The notes below the pieces were generated by a model. It had not been told where the DNA came from and searched no databases. It saw only the letters and a program-made list of their open reading frames with translations. Made by a program: the position numbers and the translations under genes. From Escherichia phage vB_EcoM_KAW1E185, in the sequence record NC_054922.1: DNA of 64,000 bases; one strand, written 5' to 3'. This document shows, piece after piece, positions 3,185 to 59,262 of the stretch (positions are counted from its first letter, which is position 1; each line of letters begins with the position of its first letter).

Positions 3185-3658
3185 TTATTTGATTTGTTTA
3201 GCAGACCAAATGCGGTCTTTGATAATTTTTTGGATGTCTTCAACATATTCAAGAGAGTGAACATGTGGGTTATCTTTGAAACTATAAGCACGAGCTAGCT
3301 TTTGGCCTTCAGTTTTGATTACTAAAAGCTCTTTAAGGATAGCTTCATATTTGGAGATAATTCCTTTAACGATATTTTTCTCTTGTGTGACTTTAGGATC
3401 TGCTTTAGGAGCAGGTTTACCCGAAGCCTTTGCAAAAGCAGCGCCAGTAGCAACTAAACTTTTCCAGGCCATACTAACTGCATTCCCTGTAAATCCTTCG
3501 GCTTTCATATCACGAGCAAATTGGAATCGTGATTCATCGGAAGCATCTTTATAGGAATATTTACCCGCGGCAATGGCTGCTTTTGCGACAGCTTGAATTT
3601 CGGTGCTAGATGCTTCATTTAACACCGCTTCATTTAAAAATTGAGCATATGATTTCAT
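3185..3658 (-). CDS. internal-protein-like protein with N-terminal capsid-targeting leader (MKSYAQFLNE), 157 aa
   Basis: ORF-track ORF trimmed to the ATG at 3658 (AGGAAA Shine-Dalgarno upstream); leader resembles T4 internal-protein leaders ending in a gp21 L/I-x-E cleavage site; late promoter upstream. Confidence 0.6.
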   Translation of the reverse strand: MKSYAQFLNEAVLNEASSTEIQAVAKAAIAAGKYSYKDASDESRFQFARDMKAEGFTGNAVSMAWKSLVATGAAFAKASGKPAPKADPKVTQEKNIVKGIISKYEAILKELLVIKTEGQKLARAYSFKDNPHVHSLEYVEDIQKIIKDRIWSAKQIK

Positions 3659-3696
3659 CTTATTTCCTGTTTTAATTTGTAGATTTAATATACTAA

Positions 3697-3704
3697 TATT
3701 TATA
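3697..3704 (-). promoter_or_regulatory. late promoter TATAAATA upstream of the 3185..3658 gene
   Basis: Plus strand reads tatttata, i.e. TATAAATA on the minus strand, about 39 nt upstream of the ATG. Confidence 0.5.
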
Positions 3705-3732
3705 CCAAAAAGCCCCAACCTTTCGGTCGGGG
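3705..3732 (-). terminator. intrinsic terminator; copy 2 of the duplicated 36-bp element (loop inverted to TTTC)
   Basis: Plus strand reads ataccaaaaagccccaacctttcggtcggggctaag at 3702..3737; ends the tRNA/stable-RNA transcription unit. Confidence 0.6.
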
Positions 3733-3740
3733 CTAAGCCT

Positions 3741-4043
3741 TGCGGCAACCTTGTCGGGGTTCCACCTGCTAAGGCAAGTGTTTGTACGAAACGCCGGGAT
3801 TCGAACCCGGTTATTAAGTAGTTGACGCTACTCAATATTTTTAAAAGGCCATATCTCGACCATATCCGAACGTTCCGTCAAAAACGCTACTCGGCTTACG
3901 GCAAAGATATTTCCTCGAATCGATAATTCGGTGCGCCGTTTCTGCTGTGATGTAAGAGGGCATCAATAAACGCAAAGATTATTAACGCAATTCCTTACTC
4001 AGGGAACATCAGTCCGACGACTTACCGGTAGCGACCCGGTTTC
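3741..4043 (-). ncRNA. putative stable small RNA(s), comparable to T4 species 1/2 RNAs downstream of tRNA-Arg
   Basis: No ORF; T-arm-like CCGGGTTCGAATCCCGG; an 8-bp long-range pairing (ACGGAACG with CGTTTCGT) could form an acceptor-like stem; boundaries approximate. Confidence 0.35.
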
Positions 4044-4394
4044 TTAATATTCTTTTAAAGCATCAATCTGTTTACGGCGTTCACGCCATAAATCAATTGC
4101 TTCATACGCGGATTCAGCATTTCGAATTAGCCGGCATTTATGTAAAGACTTATGATTTTGATATTGTGTAGATAACGGAATTTTATCTAAAAGGTCTTTA
4201 CGTTCAAAGTATTCGTAACCATCTAAGCCAAATGAACGATTTTTGAGAAATTGCCAATGACCAAATTCGTTTTGAATATAAATATAATCCGCATGTTGAT
4301 AAAGTAAATTAATTTCACGAAATGAGATATGTTTTTCATATTCATTGAAGTAAAATGTTAAATCATGAACTACTAAATAAACATTACCTTTCAT
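4044..4394 (-). CDS. hypothetical protein, 116 aa, between tRNA-Arg and the stable-RNA region
   Basis: ORF track; no motif recognised. Confidence 0.45.
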   Translation of the reverse strand: MKGNVYLVVHDLTFYFNEYEKHISFREINLLYQHADYIYIQNEFGHWQFLKNRSFGLDGYEYFERKDLLDKIPLSTQYQNHKSLHKCRLIRNAESAYEAIDLWRERRKQIDALKEY

Positions 4395-4412
4395 ATTTTC
4401 CTCACTTATAAT

Positions 4413-4488
4413 TGGTCGAGGCAGTAGGGATCGAACCTACGACCTAGGACTTAGAAGGTCCTTGCTCTTCCTTCTGAGCTATGCCCCG
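4413..4488 (-). tRNA. tRNA-Arg (anticodon UCU)
   Basis: Hand-folded cloverleaf: anticodon arm AGGAC-CTTCTAA-GTCCT, T-loop GGTTCGATCC, encoded CCA. Confidence 0.85.
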
Positions 4489-4492
4489 TAAT

Positions 4493-4568
4493 TGGGGTGA
4501 CCGATGGGAGTCGAACCCATGACTACGAGAATCACAATCTCGAGTTCTACCAACTGAACTACGGCCAC
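4493..4568 (-). tRNA. tRNA-His (anticodon GUG)
   Basis: Anticodon arm CGAGA-TTGTGAT-TCTCG, T-arm ATGGG-TTCGACT-CCCAT, discriminator C, encoded CCA. Confidence 0.8.
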
Positions 4569-4682
4569 ATTAATACCTACTCCAACAATCAAGATGTCTT
4601 CACACGAAATTAAGAGAAGAGTGATCAGTTCAACCCCTATAATCGCGTCAAGTAGATATTAATGTGACAGTTGTCACAAATT

Positions 4683-4757
4683 TGGCGGACGTGATAGGAT
4701 TCGAACCTATAACCAATCGCTTAACAGGCGATCGCTCTGCCATTGAGCTACACATCC
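4683..4757 (-). tRNA. tRNA-Asn (anticodon GUU)
   Basis: Anticodon arm ATCGC-CTGTTAA-GCGAT, T-loop GGTTCGAATCC, encoded CCA. Confidence 0.8.
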
Positions 4758-4761
4758 AAAT

Positions 4762-4848
4762 TGGTGGGGAGTGGTGGAGTCGAACCACCCGAGTCGCAAT
4801 GACAATGAATTTACAGTCCACACCGCTACCTCTACGGGATAACTCCCC
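4762..4848 (-). tRNA. type II tRNA, probably tRNA-Tyr (anticodon GUA); D-arm non-canonical
   Basis: 87 nt; acceptor GGGGAGT/ACTCCCC, loop CTGTAAA, long variable arm, T-arm GGTGG-TTCGACT-CCACC, encoded CCA; anticodon stem has two G-U pairs. Confidence 0.6.
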
Positions 4849-4857
4849 AAATTAATT

Positions 4858-4932
4858 TGGTGGCCCTGGGTGGAATTGAACCACCATCTGGCGATTATGA
4901 GTCGCTTGCTTGAACCTTCCAGCTACAGGGCC
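4858..4932 (-). tRNA. tRNA with anticodon CAU (Ile2 or Met), in the position of T4 tRNA-Ile
   Basis: Acceptor GGCCCTG/CAGGGCC, anticodon loop CTCATAA, T-loop GGTTCAATTCC, encoded CCA. Confidence 0.75.
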
Positions 4933-4933
4933 T

Positions 4934-5009
4934 TGGTGCTGATTGACGGAATCGAACCGCCGACCTTCTCATTACAAGTGAGTTGCTCTACCTACTAAGC
5001 TAAATCAGC
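4934..5009 (-). tRNA. tRNA-Thr (anticodon UGU)
   Basis: Acceptor GCTGATT/AATCAGC, anticodon loop CTTGTAA, T-loop GGTTCGATTCC, encoded CCA. Confidence 0.85.
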
Positions 5010-5014
5010 AAAAC

Positions 5015-5104
5015 TGGCGGAGGCGATAGGATTTGAACCTATGAGTCGCCGGAGCGACTGCCGGTTTTCAAGACCGGTGCATTAAACCACTCTGCCACGC
5101 CTCC
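5015..5104 (-). tRNA. tRNA-Ser (anticodon UGA), type II
   Basis: 90 nt; anticodon arm CCGGT-CTTGAAA-ACCGG, long variable arm, T-loop GGTTCAAATCC, encoded CCA. Confidence 0.85.
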
Positions 5105-5110
5105 AAATAT

Positions 5111-5761
5111 TTATATATTGTTAATTTGATTTAGAATTCTTTTTGCTTGAGTATGACTTACGCCAATATGCTTAGCATATTTAGACAATTCGCCACGTTT
5201 AGAAAAATCATATAATTTAGAAATTTCTATTCTTCTTTTTCTTTCATCCGCAGAAACTTTTGCTTCGTTTGCTTTTGCTATTTTACGTTTAGCTTCTTGA
5301 GAATGAGTTTTACCAGCAAAGCCATTCTTCATTAATCCATTTGAAGACCATCCTTTTAATTTTCCGTTAGAATGTGCCTTTTTAACACCCAATGAAATTA
5401 ATTCGCGTTGCTGATCTGTCATAGGATAATTATTTATATGGTCCCATCCACCTTCACCTCCAAGTTTTAAATTATACACATCTGGTCTATTTAAAAACTC
5501 TTCTGTGACAATATTTTTCTCGGCTTCAAGCATAGATTCTTTATCGTCAAAATACTCTAATATTTCTTTAGAAAAATTTTCTATACCATATTTATCTTGG
5601 GCTCTTTTTAATAATTTACCAGAACCCATATATCCATCATCTAAATTTTCGGTAGAATGCACACCAATATAAATTTTATTATTAATTTTATTTGTTATTT
5701 TATAAAGATAAAAATGCATATCAGTCCCTAATAAAGAACTGAGCGTCTCACGACGAGTCAT
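5111..5761 (-). mobile_element. segB: GIY-YIG homing endonuclease (SegB-like) wedged between tRNA-Gly and tRNA-Ser
   Basis: N-terminal GIY-YIG module YLYKITNKINNKIYIGVHS plus basic C-terminal region; lies inside the tRNA array as T4 segB does; true start may be the internal Met at 5719. Confidence 0.8.
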
Positions 5762-5765
5762 AAAT

Positions 5766-5839
<74 letters not shown>

Positions 5840-5844
5840 AAATT

Positions 5845-5931
5845 TGGTGCGAGAAGTGGGACTCGAACCCACAAGGAAATCATTCCGCAGCATTTTAAGT
5901 GCTGTGCCTTTACCAATTTGACCATTCTCGC
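5845..5931 (-). tRNA. tRNA-Leu (anticodon UAA), type II
   Basis: 87 nt; acceptor GCGAGAA/TTCTCGC, anticodon arm CAGCA-CTTAAAA-TGCTG, T-loop GGGTTCGAGTCCC, encoded CCA. Confidence 0.85.
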
Positions 5932-5932
5932 G

Positions 5933-6005
5933 CTGGGAATAAAGGACTCGAACCTTTGCATCTAGCAGTCAAAGTGCTATGCCTTACCAACTTGGCTAAT
6001 TCCCA
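5933..6005 (-). tRNA. tRNA-Gln (anticodon UUG), no encoded CCA, abuts tRNA-Leu
   Basis: Acceptor TGGGAAT/ATTCCCA, anticodon arm TAGCA-CTTTGAC-TGCTA, T-loop AGGTTCGAGTCCT; only 1 nt separates it from tRNA-Leu. Confidence 0.8.
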
Positions 6006-6091
6006 ATTATTAACAAAGGCTCTCAAACAAGAACCCTTGATGATAGAGGGTATTAATCAGTGCGGTATGAGTTAATAATAACAAATAATTC

Positions 6092-6607
6092 TTAAAGCAA
6101 ATTAAACATTTTAACGGTCGGCAAAACAATTTCTTCTTCTATATAAGAGTATTTAACACTCTCAACTACACGCAAAAAATCATAATCATAATACTCAGAA
6201 GCATTACCTAAAATATTAATAAGTCCTTCAAGCACTTTATTACCATTCACAAAGAATAAGTCAAATACGCGTTCTTCGTCTTCTTCGGATTTATTACCAA
6301 GGTCAACTTCTATATCAAAGACCTTTTTAATGAATTCTGGATAAAGTTGTTCTGAGAACAGTCCTTCAACCAAGTATTCATAAATAAAAAGCGATTGCTC
6401 GCTGAACAAGCCATTACCACAATAACGTTCAGCTTTAGTACTAGAATGTCTACTTTTAAACTTCTTTAAAAGATATTGAAATTGTAAGATTTCATGCTCT
6501 TCTACGCCAAACAGTGTTTTAGTTTTATAGTTGTCACCATCATTTTCCCAGGTAGTGGCATCAATTACGTAACCCTGTGGAATTGTAGTACCTAAACAAA
6601 TATTCAT
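6092..6607 (-). CDS. hypothetical protein, 171 aa, with duplicated GLFSEQ motif
   Basis: ORF track; acidic; lies in the variable locus between the tRNA array and ipI. Confidence 0.5.
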   Translation of the reverse strand: MNICLGTTIPQGYVIDATTWENDGDNYKTKTLFGVEEHEILQFQYLLKKFKSRHSSTKAERYCGNGLFSEQSLFIYEYLVEGLFSEQLYPEFIKKVFDIEVDLGNKSEEDEERVFDLFFVNGNKVLEGLINILGNASEYYDYDFLRVVESVKYSYIEEEIVLPTVKMFNLL

Positions 6608-6897
6608 TTGCTCACCATATTAATGTAAGTATATTCAATACATTCAAGACCCAAAGGATTCTTGAAAATATCATATTCAAGAGGACCTTTTTCCGTTTCA
6701 ATAAAGAAATCAAAATTTACTGTATTAAATTTACGGTCTTCCTTCACTAATTTAACCTGAGAAGATGAACGGTCAATGTAAACCTTTTCAACTTCAAAAC
6801 ATGTTAAAATGCCATAATCATCAATCAAGGCTTTAGCTGCTTCTTGATCATATTTATATCCATTTTCAATGGATGATACTTTAGCATAAAGAATCAT
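6604..6897 (-). CDS. hypothetical protein, 97 aa
   Basis: ORF track; start overlaps neighbouring stop. Confidence 0.5.
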   Translation of the reverse strand: MILYAKVSSIENGYKYDQEAAKALIDDYGILTCFEVEKVYIDRSSSQVKLVKEDRKFNTVNFDFFIETEKGPLEYDIFKNPLGLECIEYTYINMVSK

Positions 6898-6899
6898 TA

Positions 6900-7310
6900 T
6901 CAGCCTCTATCAACGATAGCATGAGTATGGGCATTTACGATTTGCCACCAGTCGAAACGATTGGAACCATAATCTGGTTTATTTTCATTTTCTTTAATGA
7001 TATCACGCAGTTTATCTTCTGTTTCAGCATACGCAATTAAATCATCATATCCGCCACAAGGATAATAATTATCACCTGCGAATAAAAGAAAATTTACCTT
7101 AGATGGATTTACGTAATAATGGTCTTTAGGATATTTAGTTCCTCTCCAATCAGTTACTTCAACATAACGGTAAGAAAATCCATTTTTACTTTCAATCCAA
7201 CTCCACGCTTCAAAAGGAGTATTAAAAACTTTATCAGGTATTAAATTACCTTCAAAATGAGAAGGATTTGCATAATCCCCGGCATAAACATAATATTCGT
7301 TAATACTCAT
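6900..7310 (-). CDS. hypothetical protein, 136 aa
   Basis: ORF track; tightly packed with neighbours. Confidence 0.5.
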   Translation of the reverse strand: MSINEYYVYAGDYANPSHFEGNLIPDKVFNTPFEAWSWIESKNGFSYRYVEVTDWRGTKYPKDHYYVNPSKVNFLLFAGDNYYPCGGYDDLIAYAETEDKLRDIIKENENKPDYGSNRFDWWQIVNAHTHAIVDRG

Positions 7311-7496
7311 TTATTCACCTTTAGAAATTTTATCCATAACAATAGCAATTAAACCAATTAAAAATGCTACTACAAGTGAAAACACATTTTCTGCTGTAGT
7401 CAATAATCCACATATAAATCCAACAAACATTGAAAAACTAAAAGCGGAAGCAGAAATTGCAATAGCAACATTTCGAATTAATTCACAACGTTTCAT
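7311..7496 (-). CDS. small hydrophobic membrane peptide, 61 aa
   Basis: ORF track; almost entirely hydrophobic; preceded by an early promoter set in an inverted repeat. Confidence 0.4.
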   Translation of the reverse strand: MKRCELIRNVAIAISASAFSFSMFVGFICGLLTTAENVFSLVVAFLIGLIAIVMDKISKGE

Positions 7497-7524
7497 TTTA
7501 TTCTCCTCAGTAGTAGATAGGGTA

Positions 7525-7555
7525 ATAGTATCACTACCCTATCTAAAAGTAAACT
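7525..7555 (-). promoter_or_regulatory. early-type promoter with -10 TACTAT set inside a perfect 10-bp inverted repeat (agatagggta / taccctatct)
   Basis: Minus strand reads GTTTACT-N17-TACTAT; inverted-repeat arms at 7515..7524 and 7535..7544. Confidence 0.5.
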
Positions 7556-7788
7556 TATTTTTTACGAAAAATTGATTTATATTTATCAGCCCATTTCTCG
7601 ATGACTTTTTCTGGTCCATAGATAACAAAATAATCACCAAACTCTTCACCACCGAGTTGACCGAAATTATCTAATGCATCACGAAGAACTCCATGAGGCA
7701 TTTCGCCCATTTTATCTTTCTTACCAATGTAAATAAACTCAACTTTTACATCAGCAGCTTCAGCAATAAATTCTTGATACGTTTTCAT
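7555..7788 (-). CDS. small internal-protein-like protein with capsid-targeting leader MKTYQEFIAE, 77 aa
   Basis: ORF-track ORF trimmed to ATG 7788 (GGAGA Shine-Dalgarno); leader is the canonical T-even internal-protein leader ending in the gp21 cleavage motif I-A-E. Confidence 0.55.
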   Translation of the reverse strand: MKTYQEFIAEAADVKVEFIYIGKKDKMGEMPHGVLRDALDNFGQLGGEEFGDYFVIYGPEKVIEKWADKYKSIFRKK

Positions 7789-7824
7789 TTTATTCTCCAA
7801 TTTCACATTTGTTTTGATAGGGCA

Positions 7825-7854
7825 ATAGTATCACTACTAAAACCCCGTGTAAAC
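7825..7854 (-). promoter_or_regulatory. early-type promoter (GTTTACA-N17-TACTAT) for the 77-aa leader-bearing gene
   Basis: Shares the repeated core aatagtatcactac and the motif gtaaacaactttgtgaaatt with the ipI promoter. Confidence 0.5.
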
Positions 7855-7873
7855 AACTTTGTGAAATTGTTTA

Positions 7874-8161
7874 TTACAAAAGATTTTTAGCAATAATCTT
7901 GAGATGTGCTGCAGAAATGTGTTTAGCTTTAAACAACGCAGTTTCTTCGGCAGGAGAGATAACGATTGTAGCACCATCCTTTTTAGCAGACCACCCATCA
8001 CCTAGGTAAACAGTACCTTTGATTTCTTCGCCATCAACCAGACTAATCATTGGTTTACCTTCTCGTCCTTTATTTGCTTTAATAACTTCAGAAGTAAGAG
8101 TAGCTTCGGTAATGGTAGAAACCGGGGTAGTTGTAGAAGTAAATTCTTTAAATGTTTTCAT
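7874..8161 (-). CDS. ipI: internal protein I (IPI), injected inhibitor of GmrS/GmrD-type restriction
   Basis: 95 aa; leader MKTFKEFTSTTTPVSTITE followed by ATLTSEVIKANKGREG..., recognised as T4 IPI. Confidence 0.9.
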   Translation of the reverse strand: MKTFKEFTSTTTPVSTITEATLTSEVIKANKGREGKPMISLVDGEEIKGTVYLGDGWSAKKDGATIVISPAEETALFKAKHISAAHLKIIAKNLL

Positions 8162-8191
8162 TTTATTTTCCTAATTAATTTTGATGAGATA

Positions 8192-8221
8192 ATAGTATCA
8201 CTACCTCATCAGTATGTAAAC
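8192..8221 (-). promoter_or_regulatory. early-type promoter for ipI, -10 flanked by inverted repeat tgatgag / ctcatca
   Basis: Minus strand reads GTTTACA-N17-TACTAT; inverted-repeat arms at 8182..8188 and 8205..8211. Confidence 0.5.
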
Positions 8222-8233
8222 AACTTTGTGAAA

Positions 8234-8930
<697 letters not shown>

Positions 8931-8931
<1 letters not shown>

Positions 8932-9656
8932 TATAGTACCTTTAGTGTATTTTTAATTTTAGAAAAAAGTTCTTCAAGAGAACCATCGTTTGTAATTACT
9001 AAATCGCCATCACGAATTGGCAATCCAGCTTCTGTAATATGCGTATCATTGGATTTTTGACCAGGACGAACTACATGAATTACTGTAGCACCCATCGCCC
9101 TAGCCGCATCCATTTCATGATCCTGACGGGTATCAGGAACGATATAATAATCATAACCTGAGTTAAATTTATCAAGATAATCTAAAGCAAATAATTTTAC
9201 CCAGTACATGCGGTCGAAGTTATTAACAATCAAATCCGTACCTAGGGCTTGCATCAGACGACGGACTGACCATTGATCTTCAATATTATTTATAACGTCA
9301 GTAATTTTGTTAAATGCTACGAAATTAACTGATTCTTTTCCTTCGTCATCAAAAACAAACACACCTTTAATTGGGCTTTTACCATTAAGATAGCAAAATG
9401 CTTGTTCCATAATCGTGATTACTTCTAATTTAGTCAGATTTAAATTAGTCTCACGATCATAGTCAATTCCTTCAAACTCTTTACGAGTTAAGCAAGGATA
9501 GTCGGTGTTTGCTGCAAATACTCCCCATGCATAAGCCAATGCATCCTTAATAGGACCAGCAAGTTGGTATTTAACTGCAGAATAATTGCTCATGATAAAA
9601 TCAGCAGTAGTATCTTTTCCACTACGCTTTACACCGCTTAAAAAGATTAGTTTCAT
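8931..9656 (-). CDS. 1: gp1 deoxynucleoside monophosphate kinase
   Basis: 241 aa from ATG 9656; P-loop GVKRSGKDT; T4 gp1 length and position. Confidence 0.9.
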
Positions 9657-9705
9657 GTGTTTCTCCTCAAATTTAATTAAGATTATAACACACAAAACTG
9701 AAGCA

Positions 9706-10236
9706 TTAAACTTCTGCTATAATTTTTCCATCTTTTTCTACTTGAAAATAGGTGTAAGGAATCGTTGCTGTACATACTAAAGCCGGGTCTGAATCTTCCG
9801 TGTAGCTAAATTCTACTTCAGACAGGTCAGAAACCCAAGGCTTATAAAAATTTATTGACATCACGATTTCAGTTTTGCTATTATCTAAGATGTAAAGCGT
9901 AATGTACTCAGGACCTGTTTTTTGTGCAGTATTTTCACCTGTAAGATAGTTGCTAGTTCCTAGCATCCATTCATACATTCCTATCCATGACTTAAGTTCT
10001 TCATCAACTATAAATCTCACGATGAGTGGATCATACTCGAATGTAACACCAGGACGTTGTGCTCGGCCCAGTCCAAACGGCCCAGTCACGGTATCAGTAA
10101 CAGGTATTCTAATTCCTGGAATAGGAACTGACTGAGCATTTAAAGTAAAAGCAGATGTAGTATTACTGTGCGGTATTGATACTACAAAGTTAGTTGTATT
10201 TGCTTGGTTAAAAATTTGTTGCAGAGCTTGCGACAT
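9706..10236 (-). CDS. 3: gp3 tail completion / sheath stabiliser
   Basis: 176 aa from the internal ATG at 10236, matching T4 gp3 length and position. Confidence 0.85.
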   Translation of the reverse strand: MSQALQQIFNQANTTNFVVSIPHSNTTSAFTLNAQSVPIPGIRIPVTDTVTGPFGLGRAQRPGVTFEYDPLIVRFIVDEELKSWIGMYEWMLGTSNYLTGENTAQKTGPEYITLYILDNSKTEIVMSINFYKPWVSDLSEVEFSYTEDSDPALVCTATIPYTYFQVEKDGKIIAEV

Positions 10237-10342: not shown

Positions 10343-11167
10343 TTAGATATTTGACCAGACTTTGTTTGCAGAGAAACGTTTTCCTTTTGAAACGAACTGC
10401 TGAAGTGGCATCAACACAACGTTCGCCCAGTCTTTCGGGGCGATTTCAACAAGGCTACCCATAATATTACCAGGTATATATGCCTTAATCATTTGGTCTG
10501 CACCCCTAAATCCTTTCACTTGACTCCAATCAATTTTTAATTTCGTTTTATTAGTAATAGTAGGTGTATTTGCATATTGCTTTAAAAGCTCTTCTAGGAA
10601 TTGCTGACGAGCTTTAGGTGGAATATAGTGCAAGTTTAATCCGTACATTAAATTATGCTTACCTAAACCAAGGTAAATTATCAAAGGAAATTTATCCCAG
10701 TAAGGAAGAGTTTCCTTGTGTTTAGCATCATAAGCAAAAGCATATATTCGTCCCGGCTGCGGGCGAACAACTTTATGTCCTTTTACTTGCTTAATAGTTT
10801 CAGCAAACCACTTTCTGGTTTTATTATTAATTGCTGCACCTTCATTACGAATTTTATCACGCAATGTTTGTCTGAATGAATTTATCATAAGCAGTTGTCT
10901 TTCTTGCTTATTGAGTTTATTCATTGGTTTTGATTCAAGCTTTTGAATCTTTTCAGCCGTTTTAATTCCTGAAGCATATTTTGACATTGCTGAAGTAAAC
11001 GTAGAGTATTTGATTCCTCTTTCTTCAGCAAATTGCTTTCCTGTCATTCCTTTTGCTTTGGCCTTTTTATATTCAAGACCTATCTGAATCCATTTCTTTT
11101 CGTTTAATGATTGCTTAACCTTTGGAACTTGGGGAGTGCTTTCATTAATTATTTGAAAAATAGCCAT
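10343..11167 (-). CDS. 2: gp2 DNA end-protector protein
   Basis: 274 aa; T4 gp2 length and position between genes 3 and 4. Confidence 0.85.
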
Positions 11168-11619
11168 TATGCCCCCTTAAAGCCAAGAGCTCGTAATCCA
11201 TCTTCTGTTAGAATTCTAAATTTTATTCCACGCTTTTCAGCTAAAGCTTGCGCTGCTTTCCATTTGTCGGTATTAACGGAATATGTATAAATTTCATTCA
11301 TAAATCTTTTCTTCGCTGCAGTTGTTAGATGTGCTGGTTTAACTGGTGGTTGTGTTTCTTTTTTAGGTTTTATTTCAATAAAAAATTCTTGTCCAGAAGA
11401 ATCTTTCATCCAAATATCCATGAAGTATCTACGTTTTTTCCCTTCTGCATTACAAAAATAAGGAATTACTGCTGTTTCACTACCCCATGCAATAATTTCT
11501 GGATTTTTATCTAACCATTCAAAAAAGAATTTTTCCCAATTTGATCTATACGTAATTTTTTTAGGGTCACCTCTATACTTTGATATATTTTTAGGAACCC
11601 ATTTTCCAGAATATGCCAT
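11167..11619 (-). CDS. 4: gp4 head completion protein
   Basis: 150 aa; T4 gp4 length and position; divergent from gene 53. Confidence 0.85.
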
Positions 11620-36748: not shown

Positions 36749-37173
36749 TGCTTCTGATCCCTGAAACTCATGAATTAGTTCTCGAGAATGTCGAAGCACT
36801 TATTCCTGAAGCACAGGGTCGCTTTGACGAATTGTCTTCTGCTTTAAATAAAGACGATATAAATACAATTATCGAGAATATGCTTGATGATGAAACTGAT
36901 TTAGCAATTGCATTAGCTTCTATTAATGAAGATATGCCGCTAAATGAATTCATCGTTAAACATGTTTCTGCTCGTGGTGAAATTACACGTACTAAAGACC
37001 GCAAGACGCGTGAACGTAATGCATTTCAAACCACCGGGCTGTCTAAAGCAAAACGTAGACAAATTGCTCGCAAAGCTACCAAAACGAAGATTGCCAATCC
37101 AGCAGGTCAATCTCGTGCTCAGCGTAAGCGTAAAAAAGCTCTTAAACGCCGTAAAGCATTAGGATTAAGCTAA
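36748..37173 (+). CDS. 68: gp68 prohead core protein
   Basis: 141 aa; T4 gp68 length and order. Confidence 0.9.
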
Positions 37174-37811
37174 TGAATGAACCCCAATTACTAATTGAAA
37201 CTTGGGGTCAACCTGGCGAAATTATTGATGGTGTGCCAATGCTTGAATCCCACGATGGAAAAGACTTAGGTTTAAAACCTGGTTTATACATCGAAGGAAT
37301 ATTCATGCAAGCGGAAGTCGTCAATAGAAATAAACGTCTTTATCCAAAACGCATATTAGAAAAAGCGGTAAAAGACTATATCAATGAGCAAGTTTTAACT
37401 AAACAAGCTCTCGGAGAATTAAATCATCCTCCACGCGCTAATGTTGACCCGATGCAAGCCGCTATCATTATAGAAGATATGTGGTGGAAAGGAAATGACG
37501 TATACGGACGAGCTCGTGTTATTGAAGGTGACCATGGTCCTGGAGATAAATTAGCAGCTAATATTCGTGCCGGATGGATTCCAGGAGTTTCTTCTCGTGG
37601 ATTAGGTTCATTGACTGACACAAATAAAGGTTATCGTATCGTAAACGAAGGATTCAAATTAACTGTAGGTGTTGATGCAGTATGGGGTCCAAGTGCTCCA
37701 GATGCATGGGTAACTCCTAAGGAAATTACCGAATCACAGACGGCGGAAGCCGATACAAGTGCCGATGACGCCTATATGGCTCTCGCAGAGGCCATGAAAA
37801 AAGCGTTATAA
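37173..37811 (+). CDS. 21: gp21 prohead core scaffold protease
   Basis: 212 aa; T4 gp21 length and order. Confidence 0.95.
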   Translation: MNEPQLLIETWGQPGEIIDGVPMLESHDGKDLGLKPGLYIEGIFMQAEVVNRNKRLYPKRILEKAVKDYINEQVLTKQALGELNHPPRANVDPMQAAIIIEDMWWKGNDVYGRARVIEGDHGPGDKLAANIRAGWIPGVSSRGLGSLTDTNKGYRIVNEGFKLTVGVDAVWGPSAPDAWVTPKEITESQTAEADTSADDAYMALAEAMKKAL

Positions 37812-55503: not shown

Positions 55504-57564
55504 CTACATCTTAAACTTTTTAGACATTCCGTCGATGTTAACCAAAGAAGCTAAGATTTGAGAAACTTCGTTTTCCTCTTCTTTTGATTCTTCTACAAGG
55601 AATTGATTAAATCCAGTCATTGGACGAACTTCACCAGTTTCCATCAGATGGTCGCCATCATATACCGATTCTTCTAATTGTTCAGAAGGAGGAACGATTG
55701 TGCCTTCGATTAAATACTTGTTATAAGCAGTTTCTTTCATCATGTACGTGCTCACTTTATTAATCTTCAGCAAAATTCCACGCGGTAGAATAACTTCAGC
55801 TTCTGTTGCTATTCCGAGACTTCCTGGATATACAACATTAACTTTATGAGCTCCATCAATTGCCCATCCTATTTGAACTTTAACGTATTCAGGATTTTCT
55901 TTATACGCTCTTATTTCGTTTGGATTAATAGTTATTCCTTCTTCATTTTTATCAACCGTTAATTCGTTACGAGCTTCTGGTTCTAAAAGACCAATACCAG
56001 CATGTGTAATTCCAAAACGCCCAAAAATGATAGGAGTTAAAGAAGTAGATACAAAATTTCTGAAATAGAACACTTTATTTTTAACTAGCGCTTCGTATAT
56101 AGGAGCAGTCATACTTTGAGCACGATAAACTGTAATGCCTTCCGGTATGCGGTCACCATTTTCAAAAGCTGAATCTAAATTATTTATAGCAGATTCAATT
56201 TCTTTTTCACTCATTACATCATATCGTTCTGGATTGTAACGACCTAAAAGAAGATTATTGATGTCAGTATATCCTGAACCACAATACTCTCTAATGCCGC
56301 GCTTTTGTGATGGAGTATATTTAGAACCATCACGGGCAATAGTAATATCAATCATTGGACCTGCACCAATTCCAGAAAAACTATAAATCATTCTTTTGAG
56401 GAATTTAGTTTTTGCTGCGTTCCAGGAATTTTTAGTCATTTCTTCCCAGACTTCATCTGGCTGCCCTTTACGAGTTTTATTATGTTTATCAAGCCAATTA
56501 TCTTTATATTCTTCAAAGAGTTGATTAACAGCTGCTGCGTATTTCTCTAAACATTTTATTGAAGTAGTTGGTTCATTTTTAATCGCATTAAGAATTACAT
56601 CTTTAATTTTTTCAGAAACTTCATTAACCTCACTTTTTGAAAAGAATTTATAGTCATAATGAAGTTCATTCGCAGTTCCTTCGGCAATAATTTTTGCTGC
56701 CTTAGTTTTAGAAGCTAATGAATTAATTCCAAGCTTCATTTCTTCTGCTTCGGGAATTAAAGGAGCGGTAGCAGGTTTATTGAAATTAGCTGCGGTAGAT
56801 TCATACTTCTGGAATAATTCACTTTCAAATCTAGAAGATTCCAATGATTGACTTTGCGCAATTGCTCTACGGGAAATTTTAACTTTAACGATTACAGCTT
56901 GGTCAGAACGTTTATCATTTTCTTGTGCAATAGATGCTGCAATTGCCTCATTTTTAGTTACTTGAGCTCCAGTATCTTTATTGATATAAACATCGCCGAC
57001 TTTCGATTCAACTTTAGTAAAGAGCTCGGTACTAATTTCCGGAACTCCTGGAATGTCTTCTAGTGATACATTTTTGCGATGTATAAGAATATATGCATAC
57101 TTTTTATCATAATCCCAGAGTTCCTTAAGAAGGACGTATCTGCCACCTGAACGACTACGGATAAGTCTATCAGCAATAACTTGAATTTGTCGAGCTTGAC
57201 CAGCGGTTTTAGACTTAAGAATACGAAGCATACAAGCATCAATTTTATACTGACGCATTGTTTGCATTGCAACAGTAAAAACTGAATTGATATAATTAAT
57301 TGGGCTTGGACCGAGACCTTTTAATTTAGCAATTGAACCTTTGGCAGTTAATGTAAAAGGAACAATATGCATCATTTTATCGCCCATCTTTAAATCGCGA
57401 TTAGTATCACCTCCAGATGTATAGGTGCATAAACGAAAGCCTGGTTGTTCAATTGCATCATCAACACGAACTGAAAAAATTTGTGGTATTTTCTTCTTTG
57501 GATTTAAGTTTGTAATCGGAAGAGTAGTATCTTCGTCAAATAATTCTGTAATGAGTTCCATCAT
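55504..57564 (-). CDS. alt: Alt, packaged ADP-ribosyltransferase that modifies host RNA polymerase
   Basis: 686 aa; position between gene 54 and DNA ligase; length close to T4 Alt. Confidence 0.9.
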   Translation of the reverse strand: MMELITELFDEDTTLPITNLNPKKKIPQIFSVRVDDAIEQPGFRLCTYTSGGDTNRDLKMGDKMMHIVPFTLTAKGSIAKLKGLGPSPINYINSVFTVAMQTMRQYKIDACMLRILKSKTAGQARQIQVIADRLIRSRSGGRYVLLKELWDYDKKYAYILIHRKNVSLEDIPGVPEISTELFTKVESKVGDVYINKDTGAQVTKNEAIAASIAQENDKRSDQAVIVKVKISRRAIAQSQSLESSRFESELFQKYESTAANFNKPATAPLIPEAEEMKLGINSLASKTKAAKIIAEGTANELHYDYKFFSKSEVNEVSEKIKDVILNAIKNEPTTSIKCLEKYAAAVNQLFEEYKDNWLDKHNKTRKGQPDEVWEEMTKNSWNAAKTKFLKRMIYSFSGIGAGPMIDITIARDGSKYTPSQKRGIREYCGSGYTDINNLLLGRYNPERYDVMSEKEIESAINNLDSAFENGDRIPEGITVYRAQSMTAPIYEALVKNKVFYFRNFVSTSLTPIIFGRFGITHAGIGLLEPEARNELTVDKNEEGITINPNEIRAYKENPEYVKVQIGWAIDGAHKVNVVYPGSLGIATEAEVILPRGILLKINKVSTYMMKETAYNKYLIEGTIVPPSEQLEESVYDGDHLMETGEVRPMTGFNQFLVEESKEEENEVSQILASLVNIDGMSKKFKM

Positions 57565-57585
57565 ATCCTCTCTAGTGTTTATTCT

Positions 57586-57593
57586 ATTTATAA
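57586..57593 (-). promoter_or_regulatory. late promoter TATAAATA (minus strand) upstream of alt
   Basis: Plus strand tatttata about 22 nt upstream of the alt ATG, next to hairpin AAAGGCC-CGAA-GGCCTTT. Confidence 0.45.
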
Positions 57594-57613
57594 AATTAAA
57601 GGCCCGAAGGCCT

Positions 57614-57802
57614 TTAATAATCTATTGGTAAGAGAGTACGATATATTTCAAACTTTGGACCTTTTTCATAGGCATCAAATGTTTCTGTGAATTTATTATA
57701 AGCATATGCATCTATAAATTCAATCATAATTTGTGATACAGAAGTAGAAACATCTCCACCTTCTTTTTGAGCAACGACAATTGTTTCTAAGTAAGCTTTC
57801 AT
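57614..57802 (-). CDS. hypothetical small protein, 62 aa
   Basis: ORF track; start overlaps the ligase stop. Confidence 0.55.
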   Translation of the reverse strand: MKAYLETIVVAQKEGGDVSTSVSQIMIEFIDAYAYNKFTETFDAYEKGPKFEIYRTLLPIDY

Positions 57803-59262
57803 AGACCAGTTACCTCATGAAAATCACCAAATACATCCTCGAATGTATTAGCTTTAGTTTTATCTTCACGTAAACGAATCGCAATCGGAAGAAATAATTT
57901 AACGTAATCAGTGCGGCCATCAGATTTTAGCCAACCGTTGCATTCGCACTCTAGAATTTTTCCAATATAATAATTTTGGTTTTCCATAATGCGAGTACGG
58001 TCAAGTTCATGTGATTTTACACCGGCTTTATCTTTTAAGCCTGAACCAGCATTTACTTTAATTTTTCCACACTCTGATTCAAGAATAAATCCACCTGCTT
58101 TAGTAGGGTCTTTACGGTGAGGATAAATTCCTACAATTTTTAAATCAACATCAATTACTTCTTTAAATTTATAGAGATTTTTTGAACGAGCATTTTCCCA
58201 CAATCCATCGGTATTTTTGAGAATAATACCTTCAAGACCTTGGTCAATATACTTTTTATAAATTACCTTAGCTTCATCTAGGTTATTTACTACCTGGTTT
58301 TCAATTAAAATTACTTTATCATATCCTGATGTCATTTGTTCTAGTTTAGAAAAACGTACATCATATTTTAAACGAAACGCCGGAAGACCGTATATTTCTA
58401 CCAACGGAACATAATCCCAGACCTGAAACTTCATGCATTGAGCTTCTTTTTCTGAAATAGTTCCCTTTAAAGATTTATTAGCGATTCCATTAGAAGCAGT
58501 ACGAGATTCCGCTACTTCGGCGAATTCTTTAGCTTTACTAATTTCAGGATAATCATCAAAAAGAAAATCTAGGCCTTCTGGTTCCTTTTTAACTTGCTCA
58601 TGGTATACCAATTCGCCATCAATTAACACACCTTCTGGATGAATCTGGCGGGCTTCAGCAGTCATTTTGATTAATTCTTCCTTAAGAAGATCTAATCCTA
58701 GATATTCATTACCAGCTCGTGATAAAAGACGAACATCATCTAATTCATCGCCTCGGACTTCAGCAAAACACCTGGCTCCATCTGCTTTTAACTGTGCAAA
58801 GGCTGGAAATTTGATATTCTTACTAATGCCCTTTTCATCATAAGAACTTGCCAGCATTTGAGGTTGTTCAGGAATTAAACCTGGCCAAACTTTGTTTGCA
58901 ATAGATACTGAAGCACCGCATTCAAGGTCTCGCATCATCACTCGACGCAAAACTTCAACATCATCCTTTTTACCATCGGTGATATATCCAGTCAATTCCT
59001 CAATTGCAGCATTTCCGGTCAATTTCCGAGTAGCTAACGTGAATTCAATGAAGTCAAGCATATCGGTAATGGTCAGCATTCCAAAACTCTGGGTAGCAAT
59101 ACCAGGTTTAGGCCATTTCTTGATATAATACTGTAACCCACGAGAATAAGTTAGACGATATACTCGTTTAAGCAATTCATTATCTTTATTCTTTTCAAGA
59201 ATTGCTTGCTTCTGCTTAGTTGATCCAATAGATGCTATTTCATTCAGAATTTTAAGAATCAT
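57799..59262 (-). CDS. 30: gp30 ATP-dependent DNA ligase
   Basis: 487 aa; adenylylation motif KADGAR; N-terminus recognised as T4 DNA ligase. Confidence 0.97.
   Translation of the reverse strand: MILKILNEIASIGSTKQKQAILEKNKDNELLKRVYRLTYSRGLQYYIKKWPKPGIATQSFGMLTITDMLDFIEFTLATRKLTGNAAIEELTGYITDGKKDDVEVLRRVMMRDLECGASVSIANKVWPGLIPEQPQMLASSYDEKGISKNIKFPAFAQLKADGARCFAEVRGDELDDVRLLSRAGNEYLGLDLLKEELIKMTAEARQIHPEGVLIDGELVYHEQVKKEPEGLDFLFDDYPEISKAKEFAEVAESRTASNGIANKSLKGTISEKEAQCMKFQVWDYVPLVEIYGLPAFRLKYDVRFSKLEQMTSGYDKVILIENQVVNNLDEAKVIYKKYIDQGLEGIILKNTDGLWENARSKNLYKFKEVIDVDLKIVGIYPHRKDPTKAGGFILESECGKIKVNAGSGLKDKAGVKSHELDRTRIMENQNYYIGKILECECNGWLKSDGRTDYVKLFLPIAIRLREDKTKANTFEDVFGDFHEVTGL

Follow-up and report, generated by a model that had tools for sequence, protein, structure and literature searches.

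The stretch of DNA considered here, 64,000 nt of the Escherichia phage vB_EcoM_KAW1E185 (NC_054922.1; hereafter 'the window'), carries on its minus strand two small internal-protein genes, ipI and ip6, enclosed by gene 57B on one side and trna.4 on the other, with a promoter and a hairpin in each of the three spacers that separate these four genes (Table 1). The ipI frame opens with an ATG at 8161-8159 and closes with a TAA at 7876-7874, behind which a second TAA stands in frame (7873-7871). Its product is identical to T4T IpI at all 95 amino acids, and its residues 20-95 are identical, 76 out of 76, to the solved structure of 'Internal protein I' (PDB 2JUB chain A). Pfam places it in PF11634 (IPI_T4; E=7.3e-54), with all 76 positions of the profile aligned, and PHROG in 4363, 'internal virion protein' (E=1.8e-48). 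The nucleotide sequence of ipI is shared in full (100%) with phage vB_EcoM_R5505 and is 99.3% identical to that of T4. Since the protein has not changed, the two nucleotides that set it apart from the T4 gene are both synonymous. The possibility of a pseudogene or a chance open reading frame at this place was rejected, the product being identical to a protein of solved structure. The gene is present in 284 phage records, in 130 of them at 95% identity or more and in 139 at 80-90%, and the loci used for comparison in this work were drawn from GenBank phage records. A scan of IMG/VR with the IPI protein gave 51 pattern matches, none of which was confirmed by tblastn.

Table 1. Features of the internal-protein locus and of related loci (window coordinates unless a locus is named)
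Feature	Coordinates	Strand	Evidence
ipI coding sequence, 95 codons + TAA	7874..8161	-	ORF list; T4T IpI identity; Pfam IPI_T4
IPI leader (capsid-targeting propeptide), codons 1-19, MKTFKEFTSTTTPVSTITE	8105..8161	-	2JUB begins at residue 20
Mature IPI*, 76 residues	7877..8104	-	76/76 against PDB 2JUB chain A
ip6, second internal-protein gene, 77 aa	7555..7788	-	PHROG 8111 'internal virion protein', E=1.8e-50
57B, Acb1 anti-CBASS phosphodiesterase family, upstream flank	8234..8689	-	Pfam PF23474, E=2.6e-60
trna.4, 61-aa predicted membrane protein, downstream flank	7311..7496	-	PHROG 1692; T4 annotation
Upstream cassette, 57B-ipI spacer	8162..8233	-	promoter scan, fold; X03016 counterpart is PE2 + stem-loop
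Downstream cassette, ipI-ip6 spacer, ip6 promoter	7789..7873	-	promoter scan, fold, direct repeat
Third cassette, ip6-trna.4 spacer	7497..7554	-	promoter, fold (z -4.2)
Late-promoter motif TATAAATA in gene 1	9287..9294	-	motif match
Gene 21, prohead protease	37173..37811	+	Pfam PF03420 Peptidase_S77, E=1.5e-111
Chimeric trna.4 cassette, L001 (T4T)	3198-3273		
Chimeric trna.4 cassette, L006 (BECP11)	~2452		
Chimeric trna.4 cassette, L003 (PST)	~2470		

The leader of IPI ends in I17-T18-E19 and is followed by Ala20, which is the first residue of 2JUB. The prohead protease gp21 is specific for L/I-x-E, and the propeptides of internal proteins, 10-19 residues long, are capsid-targeting sequences (PMC9026906); the I-T-E/A junction of IPI fits this motif. 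The first seven residues, MKTFKEF, match the leader type MKT(F/Y)(K/Q)EF, an N-terminus that a six-frame scan of the window found in two open reading frames only (i.e., ipI and ip6). The Ip6 leader is of 10 residues (MKTYQEFIAE, then A) and that of the PST protein IpV, MKTFKEFATKTTITE followed by S, resembles the IPI leader; in the alignment of the IPI, IpV and Ip6 leaders, positions M1, K2, T3, E6 and F7 are invariant. The window also contains the protease gene itself, and genes 22 (scaffold) and 23 (capsid) adjoin it. The T4 record X03016 (877-1116) gives mature IpI as 80 residues, as opposed to the 76, from Ala20, of the solved IPI*, and is presumably outdated in this respect.

The order of genes in the window, 57A-57B-ipI-ip6-trna.4-trna.3-trna.2, is the T4 order plus an extra ip6. 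In every relative compared, the slot that holds the internal-protein genes is bordered by 57B and trna.4, and 57B adjoins it in T4, PST, VR26, BECP11, RB18 and one Mosigvirus. The contents of the slot, on the other hand, vary: ipI only in T4, BECP11 and Mosigvirus AlbertHofmann, ip6 only in RB18, ipI and ip6 together in the window, R5505 and 303Ecol101PP, ipV and ipVI in PST, and as many as four genes in VR26. As these contents differ among relatives, ipI is an accessory gene, situated at that edge of the variable slot which faces 57B. When the 1.4-kb internal-protein region was used as query, 776 matching records were found. Homologues of ip6, a gene absent from T4, are annotated as ip6 or IpVI in VR26, PST and RB18. 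The single-sequence AlphaFold model of Ip6 is weak, with a mean pLDDT of 64 and a pTM of 0.49.

The promoters of all three spacers fit TTTACW-N17-TAYWAT, the consensus reported for the PeSLs (promoter-early stem-loop elements) of the T4/PST pair (PMC4122927). In the spacer ahead of ipI, the -35 element TTTACA (8220-8215) precedes a TG (8200-8199) and the -10 element TACTAT (8197-8192), with AGGA at 8172-8169. Ahead of ip6 the same two hexamers occur at 7853-7848 and 7830-7825, 17 nt apart and again with TG upstream of the -10; ahead of trna.4 they are TTTACT (7553-7548) and TACTAT (7530-7525). A ribosome-binding site, AGGA or GGAG, stands 7 nt ahead of the ATG in each of the three. The 64 kb contain exactly three copies of the 11-nt core GTGATACTATT, one in each spacer of the locus and each on the minus strand, when about 0.08 exact copies would be expected from base composition.

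The three hairpins fold better than shuffled sequence (z -2.7 ahead of ipI, -6.1 ahead of ip6 and -4.2 ahead of trna.4). That of the ipI cassette is a stem of 13 bp (8211-8182; -14.8 kcal/mol) which encloses the -10 element, and the trna.4 cassette has one of 13 pairs too, at the equivalent position (7544-7515), with different arm sequences. The same stem made of differing arms implies that pairing has been preserved despite changes on both sides. The ip6 cassette is without this stem and folds in another register, into a long hairpin (7869-7798; -27.9 kcal/mol, equalled by none of 200 shuffles) that begins 5 nt past the stop codon of ipI. It is a possible terminator or attenuator of ipI. However, the scan for intrinsic terminators did not call any of the cassette hairpins and there is no U-run after them, so such a role is uncertain. 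As for the hairpin ahead of ipI, an mRNA made from the ipI promoter would start inside its 3′ arm, so that the hairpin could not form in that mRNA and could do so only in read-through RNA or in single-stranded DNA. The old T4 record X03016 has comparable features, i.e., PE2 and a stem-loop upstream of ipI, and PE1 with a stem-loop labelled 'pot. IpI terminator' downstream of it, before trna.4. An Rfam search of window positions 3500-10000 returned tRNAs only and no family for the cassettes.

These cassettes share with the published PeSLs (Arbiol 2010; Comeau 2014) the intergenic succession of a sigma-70-like promoter, a hairpin, a ribosome-binding site and an ATG, the habit of flanking small variable genes, and the occurrence of chimeric copies at the boundaries of indels. 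The arms of the hairpins are A/T/G-rich here, as opposed to the G-run/C-run stems of the RB49/phi1 PeSLs, a departure of the T4/PST stems already remarked upon in 2014 (PMC4122927). The cassettes of this locus are PeSL elements with no difference of substance from those published; promoter and terminator activities have been measured for the RB49/phi1 PeSLs only (PMC2839356). The first-pass annotation of this DNA had read the frame as IPI with a canonical leader, and had placed it at the edge of a variable locus, flanked by a cassette-type promoter with an inverted repeat. The identity of the protein, the start and end of its leader, the shifting contents of the slot next to 57B and the TTTACA-17-TACTAT promoters with their hairpins on both sides of the gene bear it out on all these counts.

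In addition to its own promoter, ipI may be read late in infection. Record X03016 annotates a late promoter, PL1, 362 nt into gene 1, and TATAAATA occurs at the same offset in the window, from where it likely drives late transcripts through 57A-57B-ipI, as needed for head assembly. The motif has 26 copies in the whole window, where about 10 would be expected; most of them are on the plus strand, before structural genes.

What is known of the T4 protein gives this gene its function. About 360 copies of T4 IPI* are packaged in the head and injected with the DNA (PMC4437046, PMC9026906). Without ip1, T4 suffers a restriction of about 10^6-fold from the GmrSD enzymes of CT596 and Eco94, as opposed to just 5-20-fold for wild-type T4, and when IPI* is co-expressed both the restriction and the toxic effect of GmrSD disappear (PMC4437046). 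The inhibition is narrow: IPI* blocks the CT596 and Eco94 enzymes (PMC4437046; PMC12373910), and leaves active those of UTI89 (PMC6024577; PMC4437046) and of ECOR21, the target of Ip2, and ECOR17, the target of Ip3, each of Ip1, Ip2 and Ip3 inhibiting its own GmrSD subtype only (PMC12373910). By virtue of its identity with the tested T4 protein, the IPI of the window can be assigned the same anti-GmrSD function; its expression, packaging, leader cleavage, injection and inhibitory action are thus all carried over from T4 by analogy. The residues needed for inhibition, whose divergence had been named in the first-pass annotation as something that would speak against this role, cannot differ in a protein with no amino acid change from T4. 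The same annotation had described IPI as an inhibitor of GmrS/GmrD-type restriction, and here the inhibitor part stands, by analogy with T4, whereas the name of the target is no longer current: the GmrSD of CT596 is one polypeptide chain, and its description as the product of two genes, GmrS and GmrD, was an artefact (PMC12373910; PMC4437046).

The course of events at this locus would then run as follows. Early in infection ipI would be transcribed by the host RNA polymerase from the sigma-70-type promoter that lies ahead of it (TTTACA-17-TACTAT), and later the gene would probably also be read from TATAAATA inside gene 1. The leader would carry the 95-residue precursor into the core of the assembling prohead, where gp21 would cut after Glu19 (I-T-E/A), leaving some 360 copies of the 76-residue IPI* in the head. 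Entering the next cell together with the DNA, IPI* would inhibit one subtype of GmrSD type IV enzyme (that of CT596/Eco94), which would otherwise cut DNA with sugar-modified hydroxymethylcytosine. On a longer time scale, ipI and its cassette would behave as a unit of 367 bp, and homologous recombination between cassettes would add, delete or swap internal-protein genes, changing the set of host enzymes that the phage disarms. No feature of the sequence contradicts the reading of this gene as a T4-type ipI, and taken as a whole (i.e., a Tequatrovirus ipI with the expression, delivery, action and cassette module just described) we hold it to be highly probable.

One consequence drawn earlier from the presence of the gene, that the DNA of the phage must carry glucosylated hydroxymethylcytosine (hmC), goes too far. 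RB69 has arabinosyl-hmC DNA and an IPI that differs from that of T4 at four residues, and which likewise protects against GmrSD-type restriction (PMC6024577). IPI hence goes with sugar-modified hmC in general and not with glucose in particular. The window spans the tRNA region to gene 30, with open reading frames of the size of alt and of the ligase gene at 55504-59262, and it includes the dNMP kinase of gene 1 (PF21448); genes 42 and 56 and the glucosyltransferase genes map outside of it. R5505 is the closest complete genome and its ipI is identical to that of the window. It has gp42, gp56 and alpha-gt (PF11440, E=1.8e-237), and the site of the T4 beta-gt (PF09198) is taken there by a gene for a 280-aa protein of PF20691, the TET-associated glycosyltransferase family (10637-11479 in the locus labelled L008). 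This suggests that the second sugar transferase of R5505 is T2/T6-like rather than a T4 beta-gt. The position and size of the gene would be those of the beta-alpha-glucosyltransferase of T2/T6.

Compared to T4 as a locus, the window has an identical precursor at the same site between 57B and trna.4 (save for ip6), the late promoter at the same position in gene 1, and an upstream promoter and hairpin that differ by a single nucleotide, a C-to-T change that turns a G-C pair of the stem into G-U. Downstream, T4 is without ip6, and its trna.4 cassette combines parts of both cassettes that flank ip6 here. Other versions of IPI, 86% identical in Mosigvirus AlbertHofmann and 91% in BECP11 (a Tequatrovirus sf23-type variant), occupy the same locus and belong to the same family, being of equal length and having a leader of the same type, and share the substitutions I48V, A85V and H87Q in the mature part, to which the Mosigvirus adds T21S, A29T and N93T. 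T4 Ip2 and Ip3, and Ip4-Ip10 of the T-even phages, resemble IPI in having a capsid-targeting leader, and in being cleaved by gp21, packaged and injected. They have no sequence similarity to it beyond the leader and each blocks a different GmrSD subtype; for Ip2 and Ip3 the inhibition of GmrSD-family enzymes is documented (PMC12373910). The second locus of T4, which holds ipII and ipIII, was not seen in the window. Ocr, ArdA and Ral, like IPI, are small proteins and disarm host restriction as infection begins, yet they are made after DNA entry and act against type I restriction-modification or BREX, whereas IPI* comes preformed in the virion and acts against a type IV enzyme that is modification-dependent. 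The gene, its leader and its target have all been published already, as have its promoter and hairpin signals and the shuffling of cassettes proposed for the locus; nothing novel is left to say about this gene as such.

What the locus does offer is a neat example of modular exchange, in which parental cassettes and their chimeras can be compared across the window, RB18, T4 and PST. A direct repeat of 66 nt, 77% identical, with one copy in the upstream and one in the downstream cassette at a spacing of 367 nt, delimits the ipI unit. From the shared -35 segment TTTCACAAAGTTGTTTACA onward, the 57B-ip6 spacer of RB18 is the same as the ipI-ip6 spacer of the window, which is what would be left if the ipI unit had been gained or lost through an exchange within TTTCACAAAGTTGTTTACA. 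The chimera found before trna.4 in T4 and BECP11 takes its left arm from the cassette of ip6 and its right side from that of trna.4, with the crossover inside the shared GTGATACTATT(A/G)CCCTATC; in PST, a left arm of the trna.4 type is joined to a right arm of the ipI type, and the 57B-proximal cassette, identical to the one in the window, drives ipV instead. These chimeras look like recombination scars at the boundary of ip6 (or ipVI), and would mark recombination, cassette by cassette, in T4, BECP11 and PST. Whether each of these events was an insertion or a deletion is not readable from these sequences. Modular shuffling of this kind is the model proposed for PeSLs (PMC2839356), and its authors, in a later article (PMC4122927), present the case of the T4 internal-protein locus as foreshadowed by Repoila et al. 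1994.

It could be argued that the cassettes are no more than plain early promoters with attenuator hairpins, and that the differences in gene content arose by general homologous recombination during mixed infections. The T4 records of the 1980s did label promoter and stem-loop as plain regulatory signals, T4-type phages recombine heavily, and the window is itself a mosaic, with a tRNA/segB part like that of RB18 and an internal-protein locus like that of R5505. However, the indels end within cassettes, as the T4, BECP11 and PST chimeras show, and the ipI unit has a direct repeat spaced at 367 nt on its two sides. In addition, PeSL minicircles have been demonstrated experimentally in RB49/phi1 (PMC2839356). 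We consider this explanation improbable, though not negligible, and it is not exclusive of the exchange of cassettes, because the latter is homologous recombination too, taking place at short repeats.

Doubts about the gene itself carry far less weight. That IPI plays no anti-restriction part here, being an abundant basic protein that fills the head, as internal proteins were formerly viewed, or a silent passenger if the hosts are without a sensitive GmrSD, is not an idle thought: internal-protein genes are dispensable on laboratory strains, IPI is 'semi'-essential on particular hosts only (PMC9026906), and it blocks a single GmrSD subtype. The T4-identical protein, nevertheless, neutralises the CT596/Eco94 GmrSD both genetically and by co-expression (PMC4437046), the confinement of the differences from the T4 gene to synonymous positions points to purifying selection, and the gene has been retained in as many phage records as counted above, all of which leaves little room for such a passenger. 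Less probable still, to the point where it hardly needs to be entertained, is that the frame was called by chance or by mistake and that the true feature lies on the opposite strand. Short plus-strand open reading frames do overlap ipI (7899-8009, 7904-8005 and 8019-8174), but they are of 33-51 aa, and ipI has its own promoter and ribosome-binding site and encodes a protein identical to one of solved structure. An inhibitor of GmrSD delivered with the DNA thus remains our reading of ipI.

All proteins of both Ip loci have been predicted as inhibitors of GmrSD or other type IV restriction (Silas et al. 2025). Given this, it is tempting to speculate that Ip6 might be one more injected inhibitor, putatively of a further GmrSD or type IV subtype, and that the 367-bp ipI and the 300-bp ip6 units might be mobile between phages; we put this forward tentatively, as a guess with the odds somewhat against it. 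If true, the tandem of ipI and ip6, absent from T4, would broaden the anti-restriction range of the phage. The set of internal proteins (ipI and ip6 here) predicts which GmrSD-bearing E. coli a T4-like phage can infect, and is thereby of use in the choice of phages for therapy. With the Acb1 of 57B, IPI and possibly Ip6, two or three counter-defence genes lie side by side here. PADLOC gave no hits for IPI, Ip6 or 57B, which is expected for counter-defence genes.

As regards the origin of the window, its positions 1-25000 have their best matches in the phage collection at 98.1% (R5505 and 303Ecol101PP), none reaching 99% or more. The internal-protein locus matches the same two phages at 99.9% over 1.4 kb. 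T4 itself was rejected as the match, since it covers just 80% of this region. Judging from these comparisons, the window is a Tequatrovirus mosaic, with a tRNA/segB part resembling RB18 and an internal-protein locus resembling R5505 and 303Ecol101PP.

The tRNA cluster (4413-6005, minus strand) has ten genes, including those for His, Asn, Tyr and Met, which are absent from T4, and is without the Ile and Pro genes of T4. A 216-aa GIY-YIG homing-endonuclease gene (5111-5761, minus strand; PHROG 314), between tRNA-Ser (5015-5104) and tRNA-Gly (5766-5839), fills the gap where T4, PST, BECP11 and 303Ecol101PP have tRNA-Pro, and no remnant of tRNA-Pro was detectable in the window. The same arrangement is found in RB18, where the endonuclease gene is 99.7% identical and annotated as segB. 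Between tRNA-Gln and trna.2 lies a 171-aa open reading frame (6092-6607, minus strand; PHROG 2290) that is absent from T4, PST and 303Ecol101PP; judged by length and position, its likeness is to an open reading frame of equal length at the same place in RB18 and in one Mosigvirus.
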